A DNA stretch of 64,000 bases, taken from positions 179-64,178 of the forward strand of contig DASSSZ010000006.1 in the NCBI GenBank assembly GCA_035708165.1, written 5' to 3'. The notes beneath the pieces are model-generated. The model was not told the origin of the DNA. It saw only the letters and a program-made list of their open reading frames with translations, and did not search any database. Shown here one piece after another: positions 4,029 to 63,051 of this stretch. The position numbers and the translations under genes were made by a program. Position 1 is the stretch's first letter; the number at the start of each line of letters is the position of its first letter. This DNA is from Minisyncoccota bacterium. GTDB lineage: Bacteria > Patescibacteriota > Minisyncoccia > Phycocordibacterales > UBA2100.

Positions 4029-4235
4029 ATGCGCGCATCATACCGTATTATTCAAGTATTTCAAGCTGTTTCGAAGTCTTGGGAAAGGGGGATACCGAGG
4101 GTGGGGATAATGGTACACTTATCAACATGTTATCCACAGGAGTGTTTATTTTCAGCCATGCTGGATTGAAAAATAAGCCTCATTCCTCAGTGGGCTATAA
4201 TTCTGTGCATATCCGATTCATCCTATGTTGTGCGC
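4029..4235. promoter_or_regulatory. rpmH/dnaA divergent intergenic region with DnaA boxes (oriC-associated, dnaA promoter region)
   Basis: Perfect TTATCCACA at 4130..4138, plus near-matches cTTATCAACa at 4119..4128 and GGGGATAAT at 4103..4111. The region is AT-rich relative to the flanks. Confidence 0.5.
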
Positions 4236-5597: not shown

Positions 5598-5849
5598 ATT
5601 TGCTGTGGATAGCGCGAGGGAAAACCTATGGGAAAGCATGCGGAAAACCACTCGAATAACAGCTCGCGAACGGGGATAACCAGAACGGCAGTTCGCTTAT
5701 CCCCAGCCCTATCCCCGCTTTCCACTCGGTAATCCCCAGCTCCATAAACAAATCATGAAGCGAGAATCCGAGATATCAAGCCGAGTTTGCTGTTTTTCCC
5801 CGTATCCACACCCCTAATAGTAGTTATAGTAGTTTTTAATAAAACCTTT
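5598..5849. promoter_or_regulatory. Candidate oriC core: dnaA-dnaN intergenic region with DnaA boxes and an AT-rich unwinding element
   Basis: gTATCCACA at 5802..5810 and TGTGGATAg at 5604..5612 (reverse-orientation box). Further matches are cTTATCCCC near 5697 and GGGGATAAC near 5670. An AT-rich stretch (taatagtagttatagtagtttttaataaaacc) lies at 5815..5846. Confidence 0.6.
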
Positions 5850-6947
5850 ATGAAAACCAGCTGCACACAGGAACGATTGAGAGCCGCGGTGGATATCGCT
5901 GAACGTGTCGTCGGCAAGAAGGAGTCGCTGCCGGTACTCTCATGCATCCTGCTCGAAGCGAAAGGAAAGGCTCTCTATGTGCGTGCGACGAATCTCGAGA
6001 CCGGCATCGAGATCGCTGTGCCGGCTGAGGTCATGCAGGAGGGGGTCGTGGCGGTCCCTGTCGGCGTGTTCTCGCATACGGTACGTACTAGCCGTGCTGA
6101 GAAGATCGAACTCTCACTCGATGGGCAGAATCTCTCCATCCGTTCGCCGCATGGCGAGACGACCTTGCGGACCATCGCTCATGACGAATTCCCCTCGATC
6201 CCGAAGGAGACCGAGGGAGATGCCTACCAACTTTCGCCGAAAGCTCTTCTCGACGGCATCAGTGCCGTCGCTTACGCGGCTTCGCAATCGATGATCCGCC
6301 CTGAGCTCGCGAGCATCCTCATAACAGCGCAGGATGGTACGCTCACGTTCGCCGCGACGGATTCCTTCCGTCTGGCGGAGAAGCGCATTCCGGCGCGCGC
6401 CGCTTCCATCCCTGACACGCTCTTGCCAGTGAAGAATGCGCTTGAGCTCACGCATGTGCTCAGTGCGCTCCCGGATGAGCCGATCGAGTGCCGATTCAGC
6501 GACTCCCAACTATCCGTCACGGCCGGCACTATCTATTTCATGTCCCGTATCGTGGATGCGACCTTCCCGCAGTACCAGGCCATCATCCCGAAGGAATTCA
6601 TGACCGAAGCGGTCCTCCTCAAGGAGGATCTCAACACCACCATGAAGAAGGCGCGCATCTTCTCTGCCGGAACGCAGCAGATCGGCTTCCATGTATACCC
6701 ATCGAAGAAATCATTCACAGCGACCGCCCGGACTGCGGATATCGGCGAGACGAGCGATAGCATCGATGCAGCGCTCGAAGGGAGCGATCTCGATATCAAC
6801 TTCAACCTGCAGTATCTCTCGGACTGTTTCAGCTCGATACGCGCGGACAGCGTCTCGCTCCAGTTCGGCGGGCTCGGCAAGGCGTTGGTGATCAAAGGCG
6901 TCTCCGACCCCACATTCCTCTATCTAGTGATGCCGCTCAACCGATAA
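5850..6947 (+). CDS. dnaN: DNA polymerase III beta sliding clamp
   Basis: 365 aa from the ATG at 5850. The ORF track starts at TTG 5787 with a hydrophobic non-native leader. It has the three-domain clamp architecture and the canonical position after dnaA. Confidence 0.93.
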   Translation: MKTSCTQERLRAAVDIAERVVGKKESLPVLSCILLEAKGKALYVRATNLETGIEIAVPAEVMQEGVVAVPVGVFSHTVRTSRAEKIELSLDGQNLSIRSPHGETTLRTIAHDEFPSIPKETEGDAYQLSPKALLDGISAVAYAASQSMIRPELASILITAQDGTLTFAATDSFRLAEKRIPARAASIPDTLLPVKNALELTHVLSALPDEPIECRFSDSQLSVTAGTIYFMSRIVDATFPQYQAIIPKEFMTEAVLLKEDLNTTMKKARIFSAGTQQIGFHVYPSKKSFTATARTADIGETSDSIDAALEGSDLDINFNLQYLSDCFSSIRADSVSLQFGGLGKALVIKGVSDPTFLYLVMPLNR

Positions 6948-7019: not shown

Positions 7020-9449
7020 CTATGGATGCGTCGAGAAATTGACGGTCTGCGAGCTGACGCCGAATGAGCCGTTCGCGACGATCTCCAAGGATTGCGGGCC
7101 GAGCGTCGTCGGAGTGATTGACATCTCGAGCTGTCCGCCAGCTGCCGTACTGACGAGCGCACCATTGAGATAGGACGAGAACGAGGTGATCGTGACGCCA
7201 TTCGCCGGCTGGATCCGTATCGAGACCGCCTGATTGACCGGAACGGCGCTTCCAGGGCCCGGCGAGACGATTCTGAATGGCCCGTTTAGCGTGACCGCGG
7301 CTGAGGAGGACGCATACCCCTGCGCGGCTGCCCAGATGCGGATCGGGTACTCCCAGTTCGCATACTGCGGATCGGTGACCGAGGTGCCCGGCGCGCTGCC
7401 TGCGAGCGGCGTGTTCGGGTTGAGCCAATAGAGGATCGAGTGGAGCTGGCCGTCAGGGCCGGGGATGTCCCACTGCCCGCGGATGATCGGCGGAGCGTTC
7501 GCGGGTGTCGGATCGGGCTTGATGAACTGCCCTGCCGGGTACTTCTCGATAGCGTACTGCATGATGTCATGCCACATCGGTGCCACGATGAATCCGGCGA
7601 TCTTCTTGGCCATCGGGGTATTGTCGTTATTGCCCGCCCATGAGCCGACGACGATCGAAGGCGTGTAGCCGATGATCCAGGCATCCCGCGAGTCGTTCGT
7701 GGTGCCGGTCTTATCAGCGACATCGAAGCCGGGGAAGTTGAGCGGCGAATCCGTGCCGAATTCCGGCGTACGCGCGACGTTATCAGAGAGGACGTCGCTG
7801 ATCTGCCGCGCTACCTGCTCATCGAGCACGCGCGTGGACTGGTCCTGGTATTTCTCGAGGACGTTCCCGTTCGCATCATCCACCTCGAGGATCGCCGTCG
7901 CCTGGTGATGGATGCCATCCGTCGCGAAGCCGCCGTATGCGCTCACCATGTCGAGCAAAGTCACTTCGCCGCCGCCCAGCGTGAGCGTGAGCCCGTAGCG
8001 CGCCGCATCGCCGAGGGTCGTGATCCCCATCCGCTGCGCGGTCGCGAGCGCGTCATTGATGCCGACGAGGTACAGGAGCTTCACGGCGACGACGTTCACG
8101 GATTGCGCGAGCGCATCGCGCAGGCTCATCGGGCCGCTGAAGAGGCTGTCGTAGTTGTCAGGCGAGTAGCATGTATCCGTGGTCTCGAGGTCGTCCGGCG
8201 CGCAATTCGCCGCGAACTGGGTCTTGAGGTTGAAGAGGACGGTATCCGGCGAGTAACCCTTCGCGAACGCTGTCGCGTATACGAACGGCTTGAATGTCGA
8301 GCCTGGCTGGCGGTGCGCCAAGGCATCGTTGTACTTGCCGTCGATCGTATCGCTGAAGTAGTCGCTCGATCCGACCATGGCGAGGATCTGCCCGGTATTC
8401 GGATCGATCGCGACCGTCGCGGCATTGCTCGCATTGAATTCCTTGAGGTTGCTCGCGGCATACTGCTTCTCGACATCCTCCGCCTTCTTCTCGAGGTCGT
8501 AGTCGAGCGTGGTGATGACCCTGAGGCCGTTCTGATCCACCGCATCGGCACCATACTTCTGCTCGAGGTATTGCAGGACGTACATCACGAAGTGCGGCGC
8601 CTTGATGCCGGAATCGCTCTCCTGGATGAAGGTGACGTTCTCGTTCTGCGCCTGATCGCGCTCAGCCGCGGTGATGTATCCCTGCTCATACATGCGCTCG
8701 AGGACAGTGTTCTTCCGAGCATCCAAGGCGTCCTTATTGTTGCCGTACGGAGAGTAGTAGGTCGGCGCCTGCGGGAGGGCAGCGAGGTACGCGGCTTGCG
8801 CGAGGTCGAGATCCTTGGCGTGGACGCCGAAGAAGTATTCGCTGGCTTCCTCGATGCCGTAGATAGTGCCGCCGTACGGCGTCTCGTTGAAGTAGACGTC
8901 GAGGATCTGGTTCTTGCTGTAGGTCTGGTCGAGCTTGATGGCGAGCACCCACTCCTTCAGCTTGCGCGGGATCGTCTTCGAGCTCGTGAGGATAGTGTTC
9001 TTCACCACCTGCTGCGTGATCGTGGAACCGCCCTGGCTGAAGGAAAGCGTCGTGACGTCCACCCAGATGGCGCGCAGGATCGCCTTCAGCTCGATGCCGT
9101 TATCGGTATAGAAATTCGGGTCCTCGATCGCGATCGCGGCATGCTGCACGTACGGGGAGATCTGGTCGAGCGTGACGTCGGTGCGGCGGATGCTGCCGTG
9201 CACGTCATAGAGGAGGACCTTGCCGGTTCGGTCGTAGATCTTCGTGGATTGCGGGACGCGGCGTGTCTCGAAATCGTTGATATCAGGGATGGGCGTGGTG
9301 ACGAACCAGAAGAGCAGCACGCCCGCAAGGAAGAACCCGAGAATGAGAATCCCCAGGATGATCTCATAGAGGAGGGGAATCCTGTGGAAAAACCCCTTCT
9401 GAGAACGATTTCGCGGCCTATTCCTGAGCTTTCTGAAGAACGAGGGCAT
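7020..9449 (-). CDS. Class A penicillin-binding protein (PBP1A-type, bifunctional glycosyltransferase/transpeptidase) with a C-terminal beta-rich extension
   Basis: N-terminal TM, then GT51 motifs (EDPNFYTDNGIE, GGSTITQQV.KN), then the transpeptidase SxxK/SxN/KTG region (..STFKPF.., KTGTTND). About 200 aa of extra C-terminal Ser/Thr-rich repeats follow. Confidence 0.9.
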   Translation of the reverse strand: MPSFFRKLRNRPRNRSQKGFFHRIPLLYEIILGILILGFFLAGVLLFWFVTTPIPDINDFETRRVPQSTKIYDRTGKVLLYDVHGSIRRTDVTLDQISPYVQHAAIAIEDPNFYTDNGIELKAILRAIWVDVTTLSFSQGGSTITQQVVKNTILTSSKTIPRKLKEWVLAIKLDQTYSKNQILDVYFNETPYGGTIYGIEEASEYFFGVHAKDLDLAQAAYLAALPQAPTYYSPYGNNKDALDARKNTVLERMYEQGYITAAERDQAQNENVTFIQESDSGIKAPHFVMYVLQYLEQKYGADAVDQNGLRVITTLDYDLEKKAEDVEKQYAASNLKEFNASNAATVAIDPNTGQILAMVGSSDYFSDTIDGKYNDALAHRQPGSTFKPFVYATAFAKGYSPDTVLFNLKTQFAANCAPDDLETTDTCYSPDNYDSLFSGPMSLRDALAQSVNVVAVKLLYLVGINDALATAQRMGITTLGDAARYGLTLTLGGGEVTLLDMVSAYGGFATDGIHHQATAILEVDDANGNVLEKYQDQSTRVLDEQVARQISDVLSDNVARTPEFGTDSPLNFPGFDVADKTGTTNDSRDAWIIGYTPSIVVGSWAGNNDNTPMAKKIAGFIVAPMWHDIMQYAIEKYPAGQFIKPDPTPANAPPIIRGQWDIPGPDGQLHSILYWLNPNTPLAGSAPGTSVTDPQYANWEYPIRIWAAAQGYASSSAAVTLNGPFRIVSPGPGSAVPVNQAVSIRIQPANGVTITSFSSYLNGALVSTAAGGQLEMSITPTTLGPQSLEIVANGSFGVSSQTVNFSTHP

Positions 9450-9553
9450 GTGGAAAACGCTGGGGATTACGTGGGGTTAATACTAGCATATCCGGTGCGT
9501 ACCTGGCGCATGAATGTGCCACGGAATCGGCGTTTCAGGTGATATCTCTTCCG

Positions 9554-10024
9554 TTAGCGCGTGTGCGCGAGGTGCGTGATGCCGATCGCTATCGCATCGT
9601 ACTCGTCATCGAGCATCGAGCGCGAGGGAAGGCTGATCAGCCGCGGCACCATCGCCATGACCTGCCGCTTATCAGCTTTCCCGGCGCTCGTGACGGCGAT
9701 CTTCACGGCAGCAGGAGAATACTCGATGAGGGGCAGTCCCCGCGCAGCAGCGGCGAAGGTGATGACACCGCGTGCCTCAGCGACCTGCATGGCTGTCTTC
9801 GTGTTCTTGCTGAAGTAGAGGGTCTCCATGGCGAGCGCGCGCGGCGCATGCGTATCTATCGCGCGCCCTACGGCTTCGCCGATCTGGCGCAGACGCTCAT
9901 GAAACGGAAGGGATTTCTCGGTCCGCGCGCATTCGGAGTAGATCAGGACATCGCGGCCATCCTGCCGCTCGAGGATGGCGATACCGCAGCGCTCGTACCC
10001 GGGGTCGATCGCAAGGATGCGCAT
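9554..10024 (-). CDS. ruvC: Holliday junction resolvase RuvC
   Basis: MRILAIDPGYERCGIAIL.. The RuvC fold catalytic acidic residues are present; 156 aa. Confidence 0.9.
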   Translation of the reverse strand: MRILAIDPGYERCGIAILERQDGRDVLIYSECARTEKSLPFHERLRQIGEAVGRAIDTHAPRALAMETLYFSKNTKTAMQVAEARGVITFAAAARGLPLIEYSPAAVKIAVTSAGKADKRQVMAMVPRLISLPSRSMLDDEYDAIAIGITHLAHTR

Positions 10025-10114: not shown

Positions 10115-10645
10115 CTATTCCGCGTTCGTATAGACGTTCTGCACGTCGTCGTTCTCGTCGAGAACCTCGATCAAGAGGGAAAGCTTCTCGCCGTCTGCTT
10201 CGCTGATGGGGACGGTGCTCGTCGGCTCATAGCCGTCGGCGGTCTTGGTGAACGCCCATGCGGCGGAGCCGGGCGCCGCGAGCTCGCAGCCATTCTTCGA
10301 GAGGAGGTGCTTGATCTCCTGGGCCGTGCGGTTGCGATTGTCGGTCACGGCATCGATGATGATCGCGACGCCGCCCGGGCCGTACGTCTCGTAGACGACC
10401 GATTCGAGCGCGACCGAATCGGCGGCAGTGCCTTTGGCGACCGCACGCTCGATATTGTCCTTCGGCATGTTCTCCGCCTTGGCGCGCTCGATGACGGCGC
10501 GCAGTGCCGAATCGTTCACGTTCCCGTTCGCCCGCTTCGATTCGATCGCGATAAGGCGCGCATACTTCCCGAATACCTTGCTCTTCGCCGCATCCGTCAC
10601 CCCCTTCTGCCGCTTGATCTGCGACCATTTGTTATGTCCTGACAT
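10115..10645 (-). CDS. yebC: YebC/PmpR-family regulatory protein (short variant, 176 aa)
   Basis: MSGHNKWSQIKRQK..GPGGVAIIIDAVTDNRNRT..DDVQNVYTNAE. The middle segment found in about 240 aa YebC proteins appears to be absent. Confidence 0.75.
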   Translation of the reverse strand: MSGHNKWSQIKRQKGVTDAAKSKVFGKYARLIAIESKRANGNVNDSALRAVIERAKAENMPKDNIERAVAKGTAADSVALESVVYETYGPGGVAIIIDAVTDNRNRTAQEIKHLLSKNGCELAAPGSAAWAFTKTADGYEPTSTVPISEADGEKLSLLIEVLDENDDVQNVYTNAE

Positions 10646-10730
10646 ACGGCGGCAGTATAGCGCGTCCGCCCCGGCTGTTCAAAACCGCTGGGTATGAGAC
10701 ACTGGCGGTATTAGCCTAGCCGAAACTCCT

Positions 10731-11003
10731 ATGGAATTCGATTTCAATGCCGTCCCCGAGAAGGTTTTCGTCGACACCGTGCACCTGCGCGTCATCAACG
10801 GTCTCCTGCATGTCGTGCTGCGCTCGGGCGACGCGATGGACTGCTATCTCCTGCCGCTGCCGTTGGCGAAGCTCATGGGCAAAGGCATCATGGCGCAGGT
10901 CGAGGAGATCGAGAAGAAGCACAATATCTCGTTCGACGAGCAGATCCCTGAAGGCGCCCAGATCTCGCCGTGGACGATCGATTCGGAAGAAGGAGGCAAG
11001 TAG
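10731..11003 (+). CDS. Small acidic hypothetical protein (about 90 aa), possibly DUF3467-like; likely co-transcribed with the downstream RM gene
   Basis: The ORF ends 20 nt before the RM gene start on the same strand. No recognisable catalytic motif. The family assignment is from memory only. Confidence 0.3.
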   Translation: MEFDFNAVPEKVFVDTVHLRVINGLLHVVLRSGDAMDCYLLPLPLAKLMGKGIMAQVEEIEKKHNISFDEQIPEGAQISPWTIDSEEGGK

Positions 11004-11023
11004 AGTGAAGGCCGCATGGAACT

Positions 11024-14000
11024 GTGGCACTATGGGCCCATATGGCCACTCTCGAGGACGCGATCGCGCGGTATGTCGCCGCGCTCGATGAGCAATACCA
11101 GACCGGGATCGCCATCGAGCATGCGTACCGCCCGGCGCTCAAGGCGCTCCTCGGCGAGATCATCCCCGGAACCACGCCGGTCAACGATCCGAAGCACTCC
11201 GAGCATGGCGCGCCGGACTTCGCCATCGTCCGCGGCAAGATCCCGCTCGGCTACGCGGAGGCCAAGGACATCGGCATCGATCTTGATGCGGTGGTGAAGT
11301 CCGACCAGATGCGCCGCTACTTCGGCTATAAGAACCTAATTCTCACGGACTATCTCGAGTTCCGCTTCTATCGCGATGGCGCGCAATACGAGGAATCGAT
11401 CACCGTGGCGAAGGTTTCGGATGGCAGGATCGTGCCGGTCGACACGACGGCGAAGCTCGCGCACGTCACGCTCGAGCTCATGGAAGGCGCACCGGAGCCG
11501 ATCCGGAGCGCGAACCGGCTGGCGGAGATCATGGGCGGCAAGGCACGACGCATCCGCGACAATGTCATCCGGTATCTCGAGGGCGATAGTGAGCGCAACC
11601 GGGAGTTCCGCCAGATGCTCGAGGTGTTCCGCGATCGGCTCGTGCACACGATCACGCCTGCGCAATTCGCGGACATGTATGCGCAGACCTTGGTGTATGG
11701 GCTCTTCGCGGCGCGCTACGCCGACCGGACGCCAGACAATTTCTCGCGACAGGAGGCGCGCGATCTCGTGCCGCACAGCAATCCGCTCCTGCGCGAGTTC
11801 TTCGATCATATCGCCGGCGCGGGCTTCGACGAGCGTCTCACTATCATCGTGGATGAGCTTTGTGAGGTCTTCACGCATGCCGCCGTGCATGAGCTCATCG
11901 AGCGCGCGTACCGGCAGGACGCGAAGATCGGCGAGACGAAGGAATCGCGCGACCCGATCATCCACTTCTACGAGGACTTCCTCAAGGAGTACGACCCGGC
12001 GCAGCGCGTCCAGCTCGGCGTCTTCTACACGCCGCCCGCGGTGGTCTCATTCATCGTGCGCAGCATCGATCGCATCCTGCAGGAGCGCTTCGCGCTTCCG
12101 CGCGGGCTCGCGGACGAGAGCATGATCGAGGCGAAGCTCCCGACGCAAGGGATCGACAAGCGCACGAAAGGCGAGGTCAAATACGAGACGCGGCAGGTGC
12201 ACCGCGTGGAGATCCTCGACCCGGCGACCGGCACCGGTACCTTCCTCAATCAGGTCATCCGGCACATCCACGCCGCGTACTTCGAAGGCAATGAAGGCGC
12301 ATGGCAGCCGTACGTCTCGGCGCACCTCCTGCCGCGGCTCTTCGGCTTCGAGCTCCTGATGGCCAGCTACACCATCGCGCACCTCAAACTCGCGATGACG
12401 CTCGCGGAGACCGGCTATACGGACGAGCGCACGCGCCTCGGCATCTATCTCACGAACACGCTCGATGAGCCGATCGACACGATTCCGCGGCTCGCCTTCG
12501 GGCTCGATCAGGCGATCACCGACGAGGCGTACCAGGCTTCGCGCATCAAGAAGGACCTGCCGATCATGGTCGTCTTAGGGAATCCGCCATATAGCGGCAT
12601 CTCATCCAACCCGCAGTACAGGGGCAATGCCGACTATAAGAAGGAGCCAGGCACGAATGAGAAGCTGAACGAGCGCAAGAACTGGCTCGACGACGATTAC
12701 GTGAAGTTCATCCACTTCGCCGAATCGCTCATCCGCAAGAACGGCGAGGGCATTGTCGGGATGATCACGGCGCATGGCTATCTCGACAACCCGACCTTCC
12801 GCGGCATGCGCTACCGCCTGCTCGAGACCTTCGACGAGATCTACGTGCTTGACCTGCACGGCAATGCCAATAAGAAGGAGAAGGCAGCGGATGGGACCAA
12901 GGATGAGAACGTCTTCGATATCAAGACCGGCACGGCGATCCTGCTCGGCATAAGAGGAAAGAAGGAGGGGAAGGGAGAAAGGAAGGAGCTCGCTGATGTC
13001 TACCATGCGGAGATGCTCGGCACGCGCCTCTCCAAATACGAGCGGCTGAATCAGAGCGACTGGGCAAGTGTGAGCTGGCAGAAGCTCGAGCCCGCGCACG
13101 ACAGGTACTACTTCGTGCCGGTCGCAGAGGGCGACGACGAGTACGAGCAGGGCATTGCAGTGAACGATATCTTCGATGTAGGCGTGACCGGGATCGTGAC
13201 AGCGCGCGATAGCGTCGTGATCGATACTGACAAGGATGTGCTCCGGGCGCGCATCGATATGTTCTGCGACCCCGAGCTTTCGGATGATGAGGTGCGCCGG
13301 AAGCTCTTCCCGGGGAAGAAGGACGGTAAGTATAAGGCAGGCGATACGCGCGGCTGGAAGCTCGATGCGGCTCGCAAGAAGATCCGCGACAAGGACCATG
13401 ATGCCGCGATCAAGCCGATCGCATACCGGCCATTCGATACGCGGTGGGTGTACTACGATCCGGACATGGTCGATTGGGGGAGGGAGAAAATAATGAACAG
13501 GATTCTTAAGGGTAAGAATTTGTATCTTGTCGTACATAAGCGAGAGGAATTGAAGATTCCTTTCGCCCATGCGCTTGTTACCGACCTAATGACAGAGCAC
13601 GGTGTTACTTCCGGGAAAACGACCAATTATCAATTTCCTCTCTATCTTTATCCTGAGCAGCAAACGACCGACGACACCCGGCGCACGCCGAACCTGAAGA
13701 CGGATGCAATCAAACAGTTCGAAGACGCGACAGATCTCGCATTCGAACCAGAAAACTGCGGGGGGGGGGCGACTATATGTCCATACGACATTCTCGATTA
13801 CATCTACGCCGTCCTCTACTCGCCCAGCTACCGGGCCAAATACGGCGAGTTCCTCAAGCGCGACTTCCCGCGCGTGCCGCTCCCCTCGAGCGCCGAGCAG
13901 TTCCGCGCGCTTGCTGGGAAGGGAAGCGAGCTGCGGCAGCTGCATCTCCTCACGCATCCGGTGCTCGCGAGGCCGGTCGCGACATTCCCTGTCCTGGGCG

Positions 14001-14266
14001 ACAGTGTCGTGGGCGCGAAGTTCCCGACCTTCGAGAATGGTCGCGTGCGCATCAATGACACGCAGTACTTCGACGGCATCCCGAAGGAAGTCTGGGAGTT
14101 CTATATCGGCGGCTATCAGCCCGCGCAGAAATGGCTCAAGGACCGCCGCGGCCGCACCCTCACCTACGATGACATCGAGCACTACCGCCGCTTCACCACC
14201 GCGCTCCAGGAGACAATCCGGGTGATGGGCGATGTGGATAGCATCCTAGCTTCATCTGGGAACTGA
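11024..14266 (+). CDS. Single-polypeptide Type IIL/IIG restriction-modification enzyme (MmeI-family-like: N-terminal PD-(D/E)xK nuclease + gamma-class N6-adenine MTase + C-terminal specificity domain)
   Basis: N-terminal ..PDFAIVRGKIPLGYAEAKDIGIDLD.. and ..LILTDYLEFRFY.. align to the MmeI D..EXK nuclease and its following strand. MTase motif I is DPATGTGTFL and motif IV is VLGNPPYSG. The C-terminal ..YIGGYQPAQKWLKDRRGRTLTYDDI.. is typical of type IIG/ISP/PglX TRD-coupler regions. Confidence 0.8.
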   Translation: MALWAHMATLEDAIARYVAALDEQYQTGIAIEHAYRPALKALLGEIIPGTTPVNDPKHSEHGAPDFAIVRGKIPLGYAEAKDIGIDLDAVVKSDQMRRYFGYKNLILTDYLEFRFYRDGAQYEESITVAKVSDGRIVPVDTTAKLAHVTLELMEGAPEPIRSANRLAEIMGGKARRIRDNVIRYLEGDSERNREFRQMLEVFRDRLVHTITPAQFADMYAQTLVYGLFAARYADRTPDNFSRQEARDLVPHSNPLLREFFDHIAGAGFDERLTIIVDELCEVFTHAAVHELIERAYRQDAKIGETKESRDPIIHFYEDFLKEYDPAQRVQLGVFYTPPAVVSFIVRSIDRILQERFALPRGLADESMIEAKLPTQGIDKRTKGEVKYETRQVHRVEILDPATGTGTFLNQVIRHIHAAYFEGNEGAWQPYVSAHLLPRLFGFELLMASYTIAHLKLAMTLAETGYTDERTRLGIYLTNTLDEPIDTIPRLAFGLDQAITDEAYQASRIKKDLPIMVVLGNPPYSGISSNPQYRGNADYKKEPGTNEKLNERKNWLDDDYVKFIHFAESLIRKNGEGIVGMITAHGYLDNPTFRGMRYRLLETFDEIYVLDLHGNANKKEKAADGTKDENVFDIKTGTAILLGIRGKKEGKGERKELADVYHAEMLGTRLSKYERLNQSDWASVSWQKLEPAHDRYYFVPVAEGDDEYEQGIAVNDIFDVGVTGIVTARDSVVIDTDKDVLRARIDMFCDPELSDDEVRRKLFPGKKDGKYKAGDTRGWKLDAARKKIRDKDHDAAIKPIAYRPFDTRWVYYDPDMVDWGREKIMNRILKGKNLYLVVHKREELKIPFAHALVTDLMTEHGVTSGKTTNYQFPLYLYPEQQTTDDTRRTPNLKTDAIKQFEDATDLAFEPENCGGGATICPYDILDYIYAVLYSPSYRAKYGEFLKRDFPRVPLPSSAEQFRALAGKGSELRQLHLLTHPVLARPVATFPVLGDSVVGAKFPTFENGRVRINDTQYFDGIPKEVWEFYIGGYQPAQKWLKDRRGRTLTYDDIEHYRRFTTALQETIRVMGDVDSILASSGN

Positions 14267-14277
14267 TGTGAAAATGC

Positions 14278-14340
14278 GGATGTCCCGCGGAGCGGGACAT
14301 CCAAATGGGGAACTGGCCGAAAGGTCAGTTTCTGTTTTTG
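14278..14340 (+). terminator. Hairpins plus a U-tract downstream of the RM gene (candidate rho-independent terminator)
   Basis: A 25-nt perfect palindrome ggatgtcccgcggagcgggacatcc lies at 14278..14302. A second hairpin ctggccgaaaggtcag at 14313..14328 is followed by tttctgtttttg. Confidence 0.45.
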
Positions 14341-14493
14341 CGCTTTGGGGCGCGTTGTGAGAGGGCACTACCAGCCGCTTTCTTCGAATCCCGGCCTGTA
14401 CGTCCATCTCGAAGAACTCGGCTCGCTGCCTTGCCAGCACTTCTCCCGGTGTGTCGCTGTTGTGCCATGCGAACTCAGATTATTCCAATAATC

Positions 14494-14559
14494 CTCGGGT
14501 TACCCGAGTTACGAGTATTCTCTCATGCGTACATCACGTGTCAAATGTAAATACATTTG
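14494..14559. promoter_or_regulatory. Palindromic operator candidates in the AT-rich promoter region of the TA operon
   Basis: Perfect 7-1-7 inverted repeat ctcgggt-t-acccgag at 14494..14508. Perfect 8-2-8 inverted repeat caaatgta-aa-tacatttg at 14542..14559, abutting the antitoxin start region. Confidence 0.45.
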
Positions 14560-14592
14560 CACAGGAGTGGACTTCCTGTGGATAAGTATGCT

Positions 14593-15318
14593 ATGAATAT
14601 ACCTATGGATATACAGAAACTTCGGAAAGAGCATGGTATGACCCAGGCGGATCTTGCAAACCGCCTCGGGATGTCACGGCCGACGCTGATCCGTATCGAG
14701 AAGGGTGAACGGCCGTTGACTGCACGCGAGGGGCACGAACTCCGCATGCTTTTCGGTATGCTCGATTCGGATGCTGCCGAGCGCGAGCAGTTCGACGATG
14801 TGCGCATCAGCATCCCCCAGAAGAATCTCGAGAAATTCAAGCAGGTACTGCTCTATGTCTTGAAGCAGGCCGGTGCCAAGCCGAATATCGGCATGACCGC
14901 ACTCTACAAACTGCTCTACTTCATCGATTTCGACTATTACGAGAAGTACGGGACGCAGCTGATGGGCCTGACCTATTTCAAGAACACGCATGGGCCAGCG
15001 CCGCGCGAGTTCATCAAGGTGGTGAATGAGATGAAGGAAAAGAAGGAGGTGGATGAAGTGAAAAGTAAGTACTTCACATATGAGCAACGCAAGTTCTTGC
15101 CGCTCATCGAGCCAGACCTGGCTATCCTGAGTGCGCGCGAGAAGGAGATGATCGACAATGTGCTGCTGCGGTACTCGGATAAGTCCGCATCAGAACTCTC
15201 ACGCCTTTCGCATATTGATACGCCATGGGATGTCGCGAAGGATGGCGAAGACCTTGATTATGAGCATGTGTTCTATCGGCCGGCCGAGCTCTCGGTGCGC
15301 GAGTACGATGAGCTCTAA
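14593..15318 (+). CDS. Antitoxin candidate: N-terminal XRE-type HTH fused to a Panacea (DUF4065, SocA/GepA-like) domain
   Basis: HTH region ..MTQADLANRLGMSRPTLIRIEKGERPLT..; Panacea-like core ..ALYKLLYFIDFDYYEKYGTQLMGLTYFKNTHGPAP... The ORF track starts at TTG 14557; in-frame ATGs are at 14593 and 14605. The stop overlaps the next start (TAATG). Confidence 0.6.
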   Translation: MNIPMDIQKLRKEHGMTQADLANRLGMSRPTLIRIEKGERPLTAREGHELRMLFGMLDSDAAEREQFDDVRISIPQKNLEKFKQVLLYVLKQAGAKPNIGMTALYKLLYFIDFDYYEKYGTQLMGLTYFKNTHGPAPREFIKVVNEMKEKKEVDEVKSKYFTYEQRKFLPLIEPDLAILSAREKEMIDNVLLRYSDKSASELSRLSHIDTPWDVAKDGEDLDYEHVFYRPAELSVREYDEL

Positions 15319-24353: not shown

Positions 24354-24426
24354 CCGCCCGTAGCTCAGTCGGTAGAGCAGTGGCCTTTTAAGCCAACGGT
24401 CGATGGTTCGAGTCCATCCGGGCGGA
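24354..24426 (+). tRNA. tRNA-Lys (anticodon UUU)
   Basis: Manual cloverleaf: acceptor ccgcccg/cgggcgg, D-arm gctc-agtcggta-gagc, anticodon stem gtggc/gccaa with loop cttttaa, T-arm gatgg-ttcgagt-ccatc. CCA is not encoded. Confidence 0.85.
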
Positions 24427-56576: not shown

Positions 56577-56610
56577 AAAAAAGGCCCGCGCCATTGGCGC
56601 GGGCCTGTTC
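56577..56610. terminator. Bidirectional terminator hairpin between rplK (+) and the ThyX-like gene (-)
   Basis: aaaaaa-ggcccgcgcc-attg-gcgcgggcc-tgttcgt. The A-run gives a U-tract for the minus-strand transcript. Confidence 0.55.
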
Positions 56611-56613
56611 GTA

Positions 56614-57984
56614 TCAGGAAGCGAGGCGGATATCCTGGTCGGCGCGCTTCCTGCTGAAGCGTCCCGGCTCGTCGCTCGTGTAGATCGGCATGCCGAAGCG
56701 CTTCCGCAGCTCGTTCGCGAGATCATGCGCCTTGAACTCGAGCGTCGGGTGCACGTCGTTCTGCGCCCGCCTCTCGGCGAGATAGGCGAGCGCGTGCAGC
56801 CCGCCCGTGATGCGGTTCGGCAGCACGAATCCCATCGGGATGTGGTACTGCTGCTCAGCCGGCGGGAGCTCCCCGAGCCGGCCGTAGCGGATCGCTTCCG
56901 TGACGGTCTCGAGCGCGCAGCGCACGCCATGCGCCATGGATTCAGGCATCTGCGCGAGGTACCACGGCTCGAAGCCGTGCCGGGTCGTCAGGAGCGGCAT
57001 GCGCTGCACGACGCCCCGGTGCCGCTGGATATCGCGGAACGATGCGAAGTCGAGCCCGAACTCGCACTGGAGCGTGCCGCACTCCTCGATGGCGCGCGGC
57101 AGCTCGGTGTGCGGCGGGCGCTTCAGGATCGCCGGGCGGTACGTCGCGAGCAGCGCCCGGTCGACATGGTCGGCTGTCACCCGGAATGCGCGCGGATAAT
57201 AGTCATCCGGCTGCTCGTAGTAGTAGAGCGTGCGCATGTACCGGCGGTTGTACGCTTCGGTCTCGGGATAGCGCTTGGCCGGGAACGAGCTCGGCCAGGC
57301 ATCCGCGAGCGCGTCCTCGATCTTCCGCGCGATCATGCGGACCTCCGCGAGCGGATGGTGCCGCAGGTAGGCGAGGTGATCGTTCGCTTGCCGGATGCTG
57401 CTGTGCCAGGCGAGGTTCGTCACGGCGCCGGCAGGCAGGAGGCAGCGGGCGATATCGAACGTCCGCTTCTCGATGTTCTTCGCGAACTTCTGGTCGCTCT
57501 CGTCCGGCGCCGGCGCGTACTGCCGGATCAGGTGCTCTGGCAGCGCGCTCCTCACGGAGAGATACGTCTCGCGCAGCAGCTCCACGAGCGACGAGTCGCC
57601 GTTCGTCACCATGAACGGCTGCGTCGAGAAGTCGATGTAGCGCGTCGAAGCTTCCTGCCCGCTGTAAAGCCGGGAGTCCTGGATGGCTTTCGCGGCAAGC
57701 ATGGAGACGCCTTCGATGAAGACGGTCACGCTGCCGCAGTCGCCGATCGACTGGTGGCCGTAGCCGATGTACGCCGATCGGATGAACTTCTCGGCGCCGC
57801 GCTTCAGGAACTCGGCGAAGTGGTGGTCGAAGCCGCCGATCGAGCGCGAGTGGAGCGCCTGGAGCATGGCTTCGCCGTCCGGCCCCACGAGGGCGCCGGT
57901 ATTGAGCACGATGACCTGCGCGGGCAGGCCGAAGAGCCTGAAGCGCCGGCGGATATGCCGGAGATCTTCGAGCACCCGTTCCAT
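56614..57984 (-). CDS. Tandem-duplicated ThyX-like (Thy1-fold, flavin-dependent thymidylate synthase family) protein
   Basis: N-half ..VTVFIEGVSMLAAKAIQDSRLYSGQEASTRYIDF.. and ..ARCLLPAGAVTNLAWHSSIRQANDHLAYLR.. align to ThyX motifs (FTFhV..RQ.FRHRIASYNE.SGRY; ARIVLP...T.F.W..NARSLMNFL.LR). C-half ..CEFGLDFASFRDIQRHRGVVQRMP.. and ..YHIPMGFVLPNRITGGLHALAYLAERR.. repeat the fold with an intact RHR. Likely ATG at 57984 (MERVLEDL..). Confidence 0.5.
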   Translation of the reverse strand: MERVLEDLRHIRRRFRLFGLPAQVIVLNTGALVGPDGEAMLQALHSRSIGGFDHHFAEFLKRGAEKFIRSAYIGYGHQSIGDCGSVTVFIEGVSMLAAKAIQDSRLYSGQEASTRYIDFSTQPFMVTNGDSSLVELLRETYLSVRSALPEHLIRQYAPAPDESDQKFAKNIEKRTFDIARCLLPAGAVTNLAWHSSIRQANDHLAYLRHHPLAEVRMIARKIEDALADAWPSSFPAKRYPETEAYNRRYMRTLYYYEQPDDYYPRAFRVTADHVDRALLATYRPAILKRPPHTELPRAIEECGTLQCEFGLDFASFRDIQRHRGVVQRMPLLTTRHGFEPWYLAQMPESMAHGVRCALETVTEAIRYGRLGELPPAEQQYHIPMGFVLPNRITGGLHALAYLAERRAQNDVHPTLEFKAHDLANELRKRFGMPIYTSDEPGRFSRKRADQDIRLAS

Positions 57985-58136
57985 AGCCGTCCTTCCTTTC
58001 AGTGTACTGTGGACTGCCGGCAGCCTACCGCTCGTCCTCGGTGCGCACAATGTCAAATCGTGTTGTGGTGTGTGGAGAAAAGACTCGTTCTATAGTACAA
58101 CCAGTGCCAGCAATCAGTTCTCGAAAGGAGAGAGCC

Positions 58137-59234
58137 ATGGGCGTATTGCCGTCGCAGGACCTGCGCGCGCTGCTGAGGCAGGGACTGTTCCCGGCCATCG
58201 AGGAGCAGTGGGTCAATCCCGCGTCGATCGACGTGCCGGTAACGGATGAGATCTACCGCATGCGCTACGTGATGAAGCCGGGGGAGCACGATGACGTGCT
58301 CTCGCTCGTGCATCAGTACGGCGAGCGGATCTACTCGCGCAAGCACGAGTACCTGCTCGATGTGGGCGTCCCGTACCTCGTGCGCGTCGGGCGGTGCGTG
58401 CTGCCCGAGGGCGTGTACGCGTATGCGAATCCGAAGTCGACGACCGGCCGCCTCAACGTGCTCGTGCGCGTGGTCGCAGACCGCGTTCCCAAGTTCGATG
58501 CCCTCGAGCCGGCCGGCTGGCAGGGCGACGTGTGGATGTACGTGCAGCCGCAGAGCTTCCCGATCCGGGTCAGGCCCGGCGTGACGCTCACGCAGCTGCG
58601 CCTCATCGACGGCCAGTCGTTCGTGAGCGAGACGCTGATGGGCCGCATGCATGCGCGTGCGGACGGCGGATTGTTCTTCGATGCGGACGGCGGCCGATTG
58701 CCGTATCCGTACGGGCTCGTGCGGTCGCATGCCGACAAGCTGCACATGACGCTCTTCGCGCAGACCGGCCACGTGGGCTGGGTGTGCGACGGCGGGTTGC
58801 AGCCGCTCGACCTCTCGTGCGCGCAGGGATCGGTGGATGCACGATCGTACTTCCGCCCGCTCTACGCGCGCGGCGGTACGATCGAGCTCGTCCCCGGGAG
58901 GTTCTATATCCTCACTACCAACGAGTACCTCCGGGTGCCGTCCGCATACGCGGCCGAGCTCCGGCCGGTCGACCCGCGCATCGGCGAGTTCCGCGTGCAT
59001 GCGGCAGGGTTCGTCGATCCGGGGTGGGGCGGCGCGCGAGGCGCGCCCATCACGCTCGAGGTGACGCTGCCGGATCGTTCGCCGCTCTTGGTGCGGCACG
59101 GCGAGATCATCGCGCGCGTGCGCTTCGAGCGGATGAAGCGCGTGCCGGATATGCGCTACGGCGCATCCATCGGCTCGCACTACGGCGAGCAGCGTACCGC
59201 GCGGCTCGCGAAGTACTTCCGCGAAGCCGCATGA
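58137..59234 (+). CDS. dCTP deaminase, long DCD-family (PF06559-like 2'-deoxycytidine 5'-triphosphate deaminase)
   Basis: ATG at 58137, preceded by aaaggagag. ..YAYANPKSTTGRLNVLVRVVADRVPKFD.. matches the DCD family ANPKSSTGRLD core; 365 aa. Confidence 0.65.
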   Translation: MGVLPSQDLRALLRQGLFPAIEEQWVNPASIDVPVTDEIYRMRYVMKPGEHDDVLSLVHQYGERIYSRKHEYLLDVGVPYLVRVGRCVLPEGVYAYANPKSTTGRLNVLVRVVADRVPKFDALEPAGWQGDVWMYVQPQSFPIRVRPGVTLTQLRLIDGQSFVSETLMGRMHARADGGLFFDADGGRLPYPYGLVRSHADKLHMTLFAQTGHVGWVCDGGLQPLDLSCAQGSVDARSYFRPLYARGGTIELVPGRFYILTTNEYLRVPSAYAAELRPVDPRIGEFRVHAAGFVDPGWGGARGAPITLEVTLPDRSPLLVRHGEIIARVRFERMKRVPDMRYGASIGSHYGEQRTARLAKYFREAA

Positions 59235-59269: not shown

Positions 59270-59950
59270 TCATGCGTCGTGCGCGAAGGCGAACGCGAGC
59301 TCCTCGAACGCGAGTCCGCGGGCGCGGGAGGTCGCGATGCGCAGGACGTCAAAGACGCCCGGCATGCATGCCGCCTCGGCGAGCGCTTGCCGCGTCATCC
59401 AGTGCGTCGTGCCGAAGCCGGCGGGCGCGGGCGCGCCTTCCTGGCGCGGCGCCGTGCCGAGGAAGATGTGCGCGAGCATGTGCGCGATGATCTCGCCGGC
59501 CGCGTCCGTCACCAGGAGGTAGATGATCCCTTTGTGCGCGAGCGTCGCGTGCGTGCCGCACTTCTCCGCGAGCTCGCGTGCTGCCGCTTTCGCAACCGTT
59601 TCGCCGAGGTGCACCTTGCCGTACGGGAAGCCGATCATCCCGAGGAACGGCTGCTTCGCGCGCCGGTACATGAGGAAGCGCCCGGCTGCGTCGCGGCAGG
59701 CGATGAGCGTGACGATCTTCGGCTGGATGCGCACGGAGTAGTCCTCGAAGTGCACCGTCGTGCTGAGGTGCACGCCCTTGCTCGTGAGCGCATAGCCGTC
59801 CCGCACCTTCTTCACGAAGCCACCCGCGATGAGCTTGCGCAGGTGGTAGGAGAATGTATTGCTGGGGATGCGCTGCGGCTGCAGCTCCCCGTAGCGCCGG
59901 GACGCGTGCTGCGCGAGCTCGCGCAGGATGTGCTTCTGGATGAAGTGCAT
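59270..59950 (-). CDS. Winged-HTH + Nudix hydrolase fusion protein
   Basis: N-terminal wHTH (..HILRELAQHASRRYGELQ..NTFSYHLRKLIAGGFVKKVRDGYALTSKG..). C-terminal Nudix box GMIGFPYGKVHLGETVAKAAARELAEKCG (GX5EX7REUXEEXGU satisfied). Confidence 0.6.
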   Translation of the reverse strand: MHFIQKHILRELAQHASRRYGELQPQRIPSNTFSYHLRKLIAGGFVKKVRDGYALTSKGVHLSTTVHFEDYSVRIQPKIVTLIACRDAAGRFLMYRRAKQPFLGMIGFPYGKVHLGETVAKAAARELAEKCGTHATLAHKGIIYLLVTDAAGEIIAHMLAHIFLGTAPRQEGAPAPAGFGTTHWMTRQALAEAACMPGVFDVLRIATSRARGLAFEELAFAFAHDA

Positions 59951-60078: not shown

Positions 60079-60576
60079 ATGGATCGTTTCGCATACGATA
60101 GCAGCCGTTCTCGCAGGGCGGCACGCACGCAGCTGCGGAGCCTGGCTGCGCACCTGCTCCCGCGCGCGGCGCATGATCGCGTGCGGCAGGTGGCCGTACT
60201 CCTGGTCGAGAAGGATGACCGGGTGCTGCTCGGATTCCGCGACGGGTCCTGGTCCTTCCCGGGCGGGGAACGTGCCGGCGACGAGCCGCTCGATCGGACG
60301 CTGCGGCGCGCGATCATGAACGGGCCCGCATTCGGGATCTGCTGGACGCTGCGGCCCATCCATGCCGGCATCTTCGAGGCGCCCCCTCTCGGCGAGACGT
60401 TCCGCTTCCATGCGTTCGCGTGCCAGCATTGGCAGCTGATCGGCATGCCCTCGCCCGGCGCGAAGGAGAGCGCGGAGGAGTTCGCATGGGTCGACCGGCC
60501 GCTCGAGCTCAATCTCACCGAGCAGACGCGCGCCGTCCTCGCGCTTCAGGAGCGCTGGCGCACGGAGCGGGCCTAA
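60079..60576 (+). CDS. Nudix-fold protein with a degenerate Nudix box (likely non-canonical or inactive)
   Basis: ..VAVLLVEKDDRVLLGFRDGSWSFPGGERAGDEPLDRTLRRAIMNGPAF.. The REUXEE glutamates are replaced (RRAIMN). Confidence 0.5.
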   Translation: MDRFAYDSSRSRRAARTQLRSLAAHLLPRAAHDRVRQVAVLLVEKDDRVLLGFRDGSWSFPGGERAGDEPLDRTLRRAIMNGPAFGICWTLRPIHAGIFEAPPLGETFRFHAFACQHWQLIGMPSPGAKESAEEFAWVDRPLELNLTEQTRAVLALQERWRTERA

Positions 60577-60634: not shown

Positions 60635-61273
60635 TTGATCATGACTGGCAAGAAAGGATCGTTCGTCGTCTTCGACGGCGGCGAAGGATCGGGAAAATCA
60701 TCGACGCTGCGGCGCCTCAAGGACGAGCTCGGCGAGAGGATCATGGTCTCGCGCGAGCCTGGCGGCTGCCCGCGGGCGGAGAAGATCAGGACGTTCCTGC
60801 TCTCGGCGGAAGGGGGCGCGCTCCCGCCGGAAGAGCAGTTCGGCATGTTCTGGAGGGCGCGCCGCTACCATCTCGAGGATGTCATCATCCCGGCGATCGA
60901 ATCCGGCGTGACGCTCATCTGCGACCGGTTCGATACCTCGACATGGAGCTATCAGGTGCGTGCCGCGAACCGGCCGGACCTCATCCCCGCGTTCTGGCAG
61001 CAGCGCGCGCTCGCGCTCGATGGGATCGAGCCGTTCTACCTTATCTTCGACGTGTCGCCCGACGTGGGGCTTGCGCGGGCAGGGAAGCGCGGCGATACCA
61101 ACCGTTTCGAGGAGCTGACGGTCGCGTATCATAGGGCGGTCCGGAACGCGATGCTCGAGTTCATCGAGCTGCCTTCGATCGACGGCGTCCTCATCAATGC
61201 TGACCGTCCGGCGGATGACGTCTACCGGCAGGTGCATTCCATCGTCAGTCCGCTCCTGCTCGAGCAGACGTGA
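60635..61273 (+). CDS. tmk: Thymidylate kinase
   Basis: P-loop FVVFDGGEGSGKSS, DRF/DRY motif (..LICDRFDTSTWSYQ..), LID region. Confidence 0.85.
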   Translation: MIMTGKKGSFVVFDGGEGSGKSSTLRRLKDELGERIMVSREPGGCPRAEKIRTFLLSAEGGALPPEEQFGMFWRARRYHLEDVIIPAIESGVTLICDRFDTSTWSYQVRAANRPDLIPAFWQQRALALDGIEPFYLIFDVSPDVGLARAGKRGDTNRFEELTVAYHRAVRNAMLEFIELPSIDGVLINADRPADDVYRQVHSIVSPLLLEQT

Positions 61274-61330
61274 TGCGCATTGCCGCAGGCCCATGGGCCT
61301 GCGGCATTCCTTTTTGCTACAATCGATCGC

Positions 61331-61753
61331 ATGGAGCTCTCCGTGAAGAAGCTCGTGCCGGATGCGAAGCTGCCGCACTACGCGCATGCGGATGATGCAG
61401 GGATGGATATCCACGCGTGCGAGGACGTGACGATCGCGCCCGGCGCGCGCGCGACGATCCGCACCGGGATCGCGGTCGCGATCCCGGACGGCCATGTCGG
61501 CCTCTATTGGGACAAGAGCGGGCTCGCGAATAATCACGGGCTCACGATCATCGCCGGCTGCATCGATGCGGGGTATCGCGGCGAGCTCATGGTCACCGTC
61601 CTCAATACGGGCAGCGAGGCGTACGCGTTCGCGAAGGGCGAGAAGGTCACGCAGCTGCTCATCGTCCCGGTCATGCACCCGGCGATCATCGAGGCCGAGT
61701 CGCTGCCGGCGAGCGAGCGCGGCGAAGGCCGCTTCGGCAGCACGGGGAAGTAG
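61331..61753 (+). CDS. dut: dUTP diphosphatase (trimeric dUTPase)
   Basis: ATG at 61331 (MELSVKKLVPDAKLPHYAHADDAGMDI..). Motifs ..DAGYRGEL.. and C-terminal ..ERGEGRFGSTG (motif V). Confidence 0.9.
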   Translation: MELSVKKLVPDAKLPHYAHADDAGMDIHACEDVTIAPGARATIRTGIAVAIPDGHVGLYWDKSGLANNHGLTIIAGCIDAGYRGELMVTVLNTGSEAYAFAKGEKVTQLLIVPVMHPAIIEAESLPASERGEGRFGSTGK

Positions 61754-61785: not shown

Positions 61786-63051
61786 ATGGACTACGAGCGC
61801 ATCAAGGCCGAGGACCCGGACGCGTATGCGGCCATCAAGGGCGAGGCGGAACGCGAAGCCGATGGCCTCGAGCTCATCCCGTCGGAGAATTACGTCTCGC
61901 GCGCGGTGCGCGAAGCGCAGGGTTCGGTCTTCACCAACAAGTATTCGGAAGGCTATCCGGGCAGGCGCTACTACGGCGGCCAGGAGTTCACGGATGCGAT
62001 CGAGACCTTGGCGATCGAGCGCGCGAAGGCGCTCTTCGGCGCAGCGTTCGCGAACGTGCAGCCGCACTCCGGCAGCAATGCGAACCTTGCCGCGTACCTC
62101 GCGCTCCTCGCTCCGGGCGATACCGTGCTCGGCATGGATCTCAGCCATGGCGGCCACCTCACGCACGGGGCGCCGGTCACTGCTGCCGCGTCGTTCTACC
62201 GGTTCGTGCGCTACCGCATGCAGGATCCGGACACGGGCGCGATCGACTACGATGCGCTGCGGCAGCTCGCGCTCGCCGAGCGTCCGAAGATCCTGCTCGC
62301 CGGCTTCTCGGCGTATCCGCGCGCGCTCGACTATGAGCGGCTCGCGACGATCGCGCATGAGGCAGGGGCGCTCGCAGTGATGGATGCCGCGCACATCGCA
62401 GGGCTCATCGCCGGCCATGCGCTGCCGAACCCTCTCGATGCCGGTTTCGACGTGATGACCGCGACGACGCACAAGACGCTGCGCGGCCCGCGCGGCGGAT
62501 TGATCCTCACGCGCGATGACGCGCAGATCGCGAAGAGGATCGACAAAGCTCTCTTCCCCGGCCTCCAGGGCGGCCCGCTCATGCATGCGATCGCGGGCAA
62601 GGCGGTCGCGTTCCGCGAGGCGGCAGAGCCTTCCTTCCGCGCGTATGCGGCGCAGGTGCTCGCGAATGCGAAAGCGATGGAGCGCGTGTTCCGCGCGCGC
62701 GGCGTGCGCCTGATCGGCGGCGGGACCGACAATCATCTCCTGCTTGCCGATGTGATGGGCAGCCTCGGCGTGAGCGGCAAGGAAGCCGAAGCGCTGCTCG
62801 ACGCGGCGGGCCTCACGGTCAACAAGAACGTCATCGCCGACGATCCGCGGCCGCCGCTGGATCCGTCGGGCATCCGCTTCGGCACGCCGGCGATCTCCAC
62901 GCGCGGCTTCGACGAGGAGGGGAGCGCGCGCGTCGCCGAGCTCATGCTCGACGCGCTCGCGGCGAAGGACGACCCTGCCGCGCAGGCGGCGGTCCGCGAC
63001 GAGGTGCGCGCGCTCGCGAACGCGCATCCGATCCCGGACTCGTTCTTCTAG
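61786..63051 (+). CDS. glyA: Serine hydroxymethyltransferase
   Basis: ..LELIPSENYVSRAV.., PLP-lysine region ..VMTATTHKTLRGPRGG... Confidence 0.95.
   Translation: MDYERIKAEDPDAYAAIKGEAEREADGLELIPSENYVSRAVREAQGSVFTNKYSEGYPGRRYYGGQEFTDAIETLAIERAKALFGAAFANVQPHSGSNANLAAYLALLAPGDTVLGMDLSHGGHLTHGAPVTAAASFYRFVRYRMQDPDTGAIDYDALRQLALAERPKILLAGFSAYPRALDYERLATIAHEAGALAVMDAAHIAGLIAGHALPNPLDAGFDVMTATTHKTLRGPRGGLILTRDDAQIAKRIDKALFPGLQGGPLMHAIAGKAVAFREAAEPSFRAYAAQVLANAKAMERVFRARGVRLIGGGTDNHLLLADVMGSLGVSGKEAEALLDAAGLTVNKNVIADDPRPPLDPSGIRFGTPAISTRGFDEEGSARVAELMLDALAAKDDPAAQAAVRDEVRALANAHPIPDSFF

Follow-up and report, generated by a model that had tools for sequence, protein, structure and literature searches.

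A tandem ThyX protein of Patescibacteria with active-site residues divided between its two halves, a probable thymidylate synthase

Introduction

How does an enzyme whose active sites are built from several copies of one chain work when two versions of its fold are encoded in a single polypeptide and neither version keeps the complete active-site motif? This question is raised by a gene in a 64,000-nucleotide stretch of DNA from a Minisyncoccota bacterium (assembly GCA_035708165.1, contig DASSSZ010000006.1, positions 179 to 64,178 of the forward strand; the whole stretch is called the window for simplicity). A 456-amino-acid (aa) open reading frame (ORF) followed by a stop codon is present on the minus strand at 56614..57984, with its ATG at 57984 and its stop at 56614-56616, exactly where the original prediction, made from the letters and an ORF list alone, had placed a tandem-duplicated ThyX. 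NCBI lists an identical protein, named 'FAD-dependent thymidylate synthase [Candidatus Paceibacterota bacterium]', whose gene lies on a contig of 103 kb.

ThyX, the flavin-dependent thymidylate synthase (FDTS), is an antibacterial drug target, and its three-subunit active site makes the contributions of the individual subunits hard to dissect in a homotetramer. The canonical sites are built from three subunits (PMC6514825, section 3.1). Subunit A supplies the RHR triad, which contacts the phosphates, the ribityl chain and the isoalloxazine ring of flavin adenine dinucleotide (FAD) as well as deoxyuridine monophosphate (dUMP), together with M. tuberculosis R199, the equivalent of T. maritima R174. 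Subunit B supplies M. tuberculosis S71 and R190 (T. maritima T55 and R165) to the FAD phosphates, and subunit C supplies M. tuberculosis Q103, S105, R107 and Y108 (T. maritima E86, S88, R90 and Y91) for dUMP binding and catalysis (PMC6514825). dUMP is activated by R174 (PMC8316439). Here, we find that the residues of these three contributions are divided between the two halves of the tandem protein in a way that is shared by its whole family. We assign a probability of about 0.68 to the reading that the protein is both a functional flavin-dependent thymidylate synthase and a pseudo-tetramer with two active sites.

Results

By sequence, a ThyX domain is recognisable in the N-half only (residues 1-235, 57280..57984, on the minus strand like all features of this gene). 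Pfam PF02511 (Thy1) matched residues 62-231 (53.5 bits versus a cut-off of 24.8, E 3.4e-14), and the C-half (residues 236-456, 56617..57279), submitted alone as the C-terminal 221 residues, gave no Thy1 match. Profile alignment with hhalign assigned the N-half to the ThyX profile with a probability of 84% (E 7e-6, 193 columns) and aligned the profiles of the two halves with a probability of only 1-3%, i.e. a duplication is not provable by sequence alone. A full-length AlphaFold2 model was obtained with a predicted local distance difference test score (pLDDT) of 89.9 and a predicted template modelling score of 0.89. A Foldseek comparison of this model with the PDB could not tell which half was matched, and the C-half was therefore modelled separately. 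The alpha/beta fold of ThyX was found in both halves. In the structure comparison addressing the two folds, values of 12.6 were obtained for T. maritima ThyX and for M. tuberculosis ThyX, 11.4 for PolB, 11.3 for the ThyX in PDB 4FZB (which we take to be the PBCV-1 enzyme) and 10.7 for H. pylori ThyX; the best unrelated protein reached 4.2. On the models, the C-half is established as a second, divergent ThyX domain by structure and not by sequence. The original prediction had named a single detected Thy1 domain as grounds for abandoning the duplication. This is what domain mapping returned, but the duplication stands because the structural evidence shows a second fold, and the claim of two consecutive ThyX folds survives at the level of structure and not at the level of sequence profiles. 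Half of the tandem ThyX is missed by profile-based annotation.

Active-site residues were assigned in T. maritima numbering (the T. maritima query sequence is identical to PDB 1KQ4) and counted in 120 close homologues and in 96 full-length sequences representing clusters at 50% identity, the most distant being ~30% identical to the query. The N-half reads ...AKAIQ-D103-S104-R105-LYSGQEASTRY116; it can be aligned gap-free with M. tuberculosis ThyX (...LI-RHR-HFSYSQLSQRY) and, in hhalign, with T. maritima ThyX. Both alignments place D103-S104-R105 (57670..57678) where R78-H79-R80 stand in the canonical enzyme, in line with the earlier claim that the triad is replaced by DSR. The third Arg of DSR is not conserved, since the family consensus is D-W-P: in the 120 close homologues the first position is D in 117 and the second W in 101, and the third is variable (P 53, R 30). 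The remaining N-half equivalents are kept, namely H53=H77, T55=S79, E58=D82, R74=K99, E86=E111, S88=S113, R90=R115, Y91=Y116, R147=R180 and R165=R198. They include E111-A-S113-T-R115-Y116 (57637..57654), which corresponds in the alignments to the dUMP-binding and catalytic loop (the Ser loop) with E86, S88, R90 and Y91, and G76-H77-Q78-S79 (57748..57759), aligned to T. maritima G52-H53-E54-T55 (M. tuberculosis H69/S71), the loop given by the second subunit to the flavin site.

The C-half reads FRDIQ-R321-H322-R323-GVVQRMPLL and carries the sole RHR triad of the protein (R321-H322-R323, 57016..57024), placed by the hhalign register and the order of secondary-structure elements. Also kept are R74=R317 and the segment from R406 to H412 (56749..56769), in which R406 equals R174 in a gap-free hhalign alignment and H412 is probably the equivalent of H178. 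The Ser loop is lost, and the C-half carries the replacements H53->P296, S88->L331, R90->T333 and R147->Q379.

The same division was found throughout the 96 representatives. The R78 position is D in 77, N in 6, H in 4 and S in 3 of the N-halves, with Arg outside the four commonest residues, and R in all 96 C-halves; the H79 position is variable in the N-half and H (82) or Q (13) in the C-half; the R80 position is P in 60 N-halves and R in 95 C-halves; and the R174 position is R in only 34 N-halves and in all 96 C-halves, as is the R74 equivalent of the C-half. The opposite pattern holds for H53 (H in 92 N-halves, P in 84 C-halves), S88 (S in 96, L in 67), R90 (R in 96, T in 64) and R147 (R in 90, Q in 93), and for T55 (S in 96), Y91 (Y in 89) and R165 (R in 77), which are variable in the C-half. 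At the H178 position, H is found in 87 N-halves and 96 C-halves. The contiguous motif RHRxxSxxxxSxR is present in neither half (D-S-R...S...S-T-R-Y in the N-half, R-H-R...V...L-L-T in the C-half) and is complete only when the two are combined. A-type residues survive in the C-half only (R321, H322, R323, R406), and B- and C-type residues in the N-half only (H77, S79 and R198; E111, S113, R115, Y116 and R180). As judged from the alignments, R78, R80 and R174, T55 and R165, and S88, R90, Y91 and R147 are all present when both halves are pooled. The split is a property of the family and no quirk of the window protein, and both the retention of RHR in the C-half and the complementary loss within a tandem pseudo-dimer, as originally claimed, were borne out by the 120 homologues and the 96 representatives.

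Residues 72-83 (57736-57771, YIGYGHQSIGDC) form a highly conserved loop, the only segment of the model whose pLDDT falls under 50. The equivalents of the flavin/folate-contacting H53 and T55 lie in this loop, which is probably mobile and substrate-gating.

The residue assignments suggest how the site may be assembled. Two tandem chains would form a pseudo-tetramer (N1, C1, N2, C2) that mimics the D2 homotetramer. A site centred on a C-half would be complete, with the B and C contributions supplied by the two N-halves, and a dimer would hold two such sites. A site centred on the D-W-P of an N-half would have the two C-halves as partners, in which nearly every ligand-binding residue is lost, so that two sites would be dead. 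Two live and two dead sites would correspond to one FAD per 456-aa chain, and the predicted reaction is dUMP + methylene-tetrahydrofolate (CH2-THF) + reductant -> deoxythymidine monophosphate (dTMP) + tetrahydrofolate (THF). Inactive ThyX mutants were reportedly seen by Leduc and colleagues in 2004 to complement one another in mixed tetramers. The tandem protein is very probably a working thymidylate synthase; the two-site pseudo-tetramer, for which the dimeric assembly and the number of live sites are deduced, is favoured with less assurance.

Two other roles for the degenerate parts of the protein were considered. The pseudo-sites, made up of the N-half D-W-P and of Q-R-M-P-L and Q379-Y380 of the C-half, which are themselves conserved, could have acquired a new use in binding a ligand of their own, e.g. 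the reductant NADPH or an allosteric nucleotide. We regard this as rather improbable; if true, functions that canonical ThyX performs in one pocket would be separated. Alternatively, the C-half could stand in for the partner subunits as a mere structural or regulatory pseudo-domain, with the N-halves alone catalysing and FAD held in a non-canonical way, a possibility suggested by the recognition of the N-half alone by sequence and by the C-half lacking the Ser loop, R147, H53 and T55. This is unlikely, as the C-half equivalents of R78, R80 and R174 are retained in 95-96 of the 96 representatives while Asp, followed by Asn, His and Ser, occupies the R78 position of the N-half, and such exact retention of the FAD-phosphate and dUMP-activating arginines would be hard to explain in a scaffold.

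The ribosome-binding site of the tandem thyX (AAGGAAGGA, 57990..57998, minus strand), read directly from the sequence, lies 5 nt 5' of the ATG. An in-frame TTG at 58056, which would add 24 aa, was rejected as the start codon: the homologues begin at the ATG, and the ribosome-binding site fits the ATG. Directly 3' of the stop codon, a terminator scan identified an intrinsic terminator (56582..56606, minus strand) with an 11-bp stem, 10 pairs of which are G-C, followed by a T-run. With its own ATG, ribosome-binding site and hairpin terminator, the tandem thyX is therefore a self-contained unit. No sigma-70 promoter was found in a scan of the intergenic region between the divergent thyX and dcd.

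The dcd gene (58137..59234, plus strand) encodes the long form of dCTP deaminase with DCD_N and DCD_C (Pfam PF06559, PF22569, PF22769) and supplies deoxyuridine triphosphate (dUTP), hence dUMP. Long Dcd is itself a tandem duplication of a dUTPase-like fold, so that each of the two adjacent divergent genes encodes a homo-oligomeric nucleotide enzyme in fused form. The plus strand continues with tmk (60635-61273, Pfam Thymidylate_kin) for the consumption of dTMP, dut (61280-61753, Pfam dUTPase) for the supply of dUMP and glyA (61786-63051, Pfam SHMT) for the supply of CH2-THF. Between dcd and tmk, a helix-turn-helix (HTH)-NUDIX fusion protein (59270-59950, minus strand) and a Nudix-like ORF (60079-60576, plus strand; no Pfam match) are encoded, and NUDIX genes accompany the tandem thyX cluster in a few other loci too. 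The four pathway genes had originally been described as lying immediately downstream in support of a role in dTMP synthesis. The arrangement needs correction, since dcd is divergent and not downstream and thyX has its own terminator, but the role gains from a wider comparison: at least one dTMP-pathway gene is found near the tandem thyX in 71 of 82 loci (81 retrieved loci plus the window; tmk, dut, deoxycytidine monophosphate (dCMP) deaminase, dcd, glyA, thymidine kinase (TK) and dihydrofolate reductase (DHFR) were counted). The neighbours across the 82 loci comprise tmk (36), dut (26), dCMP deaminase (26), glyA (24), long dcd (11), TK (4) and DHFR (3). In a Nomurabacteria contig the gene order is dCMP deaminase, NUDIX, kinase, ThyX, DHFR, dUTPase, TK, TMK.

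Natural fusions of dCMP deaminase with tandem ThyX (612-636 aa; P0463, P0458, P0481 and others) occur in a sister clade of ~430-aa proteins from Patescibacteria. The HAE and PCxxC motifs are both present in two of the three fusions checked, and the deaminase of P0463 spans residues 17-136. These fusions are a Rosetta-stone link of dUMP production to tandem ThyX. A further indication comes from a Dojkabacteria metagenome-assembled genome (locus L070, JAYRWD010000044.1), in which a remnant of thyA (9405-9584) directly follows the tandem thyX (7947-9299). The remnant encodes only the C-terminal ~60 aa, which match residues 205-264 of E. coli ThyA with 43% identity (E 1e-9), and a RibD_C/DHFR-like gene (10531-11052) lies ~1 kb further downstream. 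The arrangement suggests that the tandem thyX has displaced thyA in place. Apart from this remnant, no thyA was found beside the tandem thyX in the window or in 83 loci. A DHFR gene stands directly 3' of the tandem thyX in locus L001 (11350-11832, 4-bp overlap) and also in L068 and L081. ThyX chemistry yields THF, and DHFR is not needed; the arrangement resembles thyA-folA operons and may have been inherited from a displaced thyA.

The genomic context, the dCMP deaminase fusions and the displaced thyA indicate that the substrate is dUMP and the product dTMP. It had been suggested from the sequence that the protein may act on a different substrate, like ThyX-fold nucleotide methylases or hypermodification enzymes. 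This suggestion found no support, and we judge a ThyX-fold enzyme with another substrate or product, e.g. a PolB-like uridine monophosphate (UMP) methylase or a pyrimidine hypermodification enzyme, distinctly unlikely: the canonical dUMP ligands S88, R90, Y91, R147 and R174 are all kept, the neighbours are dUMP producers and a dTMP kinase, fusions with dCMP deaminase exist, the thyA remnant of L070 implies a functional replacement of ThyA, and no biosynthetic-cluster context was seen.

The full-length tandem architecture is shared by >3000 database proteins at 45-60% identity, and relatives are found in at least 586 species-level genomes, the best 80 of which are Patescibacteria, several with evidently wrong automatic labels. 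The window protein is an ordinary member of a large family already annotated as ThyX. A search with the C-half alone returned 497 clusters at E <= 0.001, nearly all of 430-520 aa and matched in their second half. Hits shorter than 400 aa were considered as stand-alone C-half proteins and rejected, since these gene calls are truncated and begin within the N-half. One homologue of full length is ORF269 of Vibrio phage BONAISHI (L083:2167-3609), whose alignment of 452 aa shows 31% identity (E 8e-50); its N-half carries D-F-V and its C-half RHR. The homologues of jumbo Vibrio phages (also MK308674-MK308677) keep the same partition of RHR and Ser loop, and four of the five phage records give the gene no label other than hypothetical. 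Another homologue lies on a phage-like 130-kb metagenomic contig (L082:8001-9575). Model matches in BFVD had template modelling (TM) scores of 0.77 and 0.61 for proteins of 461 aa and 491 aa, including A0A6B7EUB9 and a Microcystis phage LMM01 protein.

This distribution bears on whether the protein is active at all. As an inactive relic or a nucleotide-binding regulator, it would leave thymidylate to salvage or to another synthase elsewhere in the genome. TK adjoins the tandem thyX in four loci, bacteria of the candidate phyla radiation (CPR) have a reduced metabolism, and the search for thyA and thyX covered the 64-kb window only. Against these points, both halves are conserved with a mean column identity of 61% across 53 sequences, the catalytic residues are invariant, the protein is present in hundreds of species genomes, and glyA and DHFR co-localise with the tandem thyX, which makes a relic very unlikely. 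The chance that an assembly or gene-calling artefact fused two adjacent thyX genes is negligible, as the ORF is uninterrupted, the architecture recurs in thousands of proteins including those of isolated phage genomes and of contigs up to 842 kb, and short homologues are truncated fragments of the long form; the tandem architecture is neither chance nor misassembly.

Discussion

Several points weigh against a functional two-site enzyme. The match to TIGR02170, the NCBIfam equivalog model, reaches 36.7 bits versus a cut-off of 87.9, i.e. the tandem protein is a member of the ThyX superfamily without an equivalog-level match. The alignment of the C-half family profile to the ThyX profile (hhalign, E 0.007, probability 6%) is useful for register only and supports this register weakly. 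The proposed geometry follows from residue bookkeeping alone, and the pseudo-tetramer would need a true two-fold axis that relates the C-halves in the same way as subunit A and the non-contributing fourth subunit of the canonical enzyme. The His equivalent to H178 is conserved in both halves, and the supposed dead site keeps the invariant residues Q327, M329, P330, Q379 and Y380, so that it is perhaps not merely dead. When a thyA or a second thyX was looked for, as the original prediction had proposed, neither these genes nor folA were found within the 64-kb window, to which the search was confined (E. coli ThyA and FolA sequences served as queries). Finally, we found no biochemical data for any member of the tandem ThyX family.

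The comparison with known systems places the protein closest to canonical ThyX/FDTS (T. maritima TM0449, PDB 1O26; M. tuberculosis Rv2754c, PDB 2AF6/3GWC), which has the same fold as both halves, the same metabolic neighbourhood and, once the halves are pooled, the same residues for FAD, dUMP and catalysis. The canonical enzyme is a homotetramer with four sites and a contiguous motif, whereas the tandem ThyX has two domains per chain, is predicted to have two sites per pseudo-tetramer, and separates RHR (C-half only) from SxxxxSxRY (N-half only). The phage proteins of 460-490 aa called 'thymidylate synthase-like' include the full-length homologue of BONAISHI and the BFVD model matches, but are encoded by viral genes with non-CPR hosts. 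PolB, the UMP/dUMP methylase of polyoxin biosynthesis (PDB 4P5A), differs in being a single-domain protein of a secondary-metabolite cluster with a broadened substrate range. The tandem ThyX does not belong to the PolB type as defined by a secondary-metabolite cluster context and PolB-specific substrate loops, and nothing suggests UMP as its substrate.

The monomeric herpesvirus dUTPase and the long DCD_N+DCD_C dCTP deaminase are tandem duplications of the trimeric dUTPase fold. They share the logic of the tandem ThyX, in that an oligomer with cross-subunit sites was fused, the copies lost complementary motifs and the number of sites decreased. Fold and chemistry are unrelated, and the likeness is an analogy of mechanism and not of membership. 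Chlamydia ThyX is also ~530 aa long. An internal domain duplication has been described for ThyX of Chloroflexi, which 'contains a domain duplication', was 'not characterized' and also occurs in a small number of further species (Valas & Bourne 2009, Biol Direct 4:30, PMC3224940). The likeness to the tandem ThyX is by description only; should the Chloroflexi protein prove to be an orthologue, Patescibacteria and Chloroflexota would be linked by the fusion as a shared derived character. Beyond this one sentence of 2009, no published characterisation of a tandem ThyX was found in the literature reached. New here are the structural proof of the second domain from the models, a division of residues that runs through the whole family and agrees with the three-subunit site, the two-site model, and the evidence for function from the fusions and the thyA remnant.

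A naturally fused ThyX ties each subunit role to a fixed domain, so that the roles can be mutated independently and the half-of-sites question becomes directly approachable. If the evidence from neighbourhood, fusions and thyA remnant holds, a very large group of uncultured bacteria, and some jumbo phages, likely have the tandem ThyX as their sole thymidylate synthase.

Other features of the window

An Rfam scan of the window gave no RNA family besides tRNA above the gathering score; six tRNA genes lie between 24354 and 50195 (at 24354, 28838, 41792 on the minus strand, 46818, 46949 and 50123). The genes dnaA (4230-5597) and dnaN (5787-6947) are located in the stretch of lowest GC content (4230-6947; 52.6% vs ~65%), where the chromosomal replication origin probably lies. 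A second stretch of lower GC content (11024-15318) encodes a 1080-aa Type ISP restriction-modification enzyme (N6_Mtase + Type_ISP_C), followed by an HTH and SocA/Panacea antitoxin-like gene.

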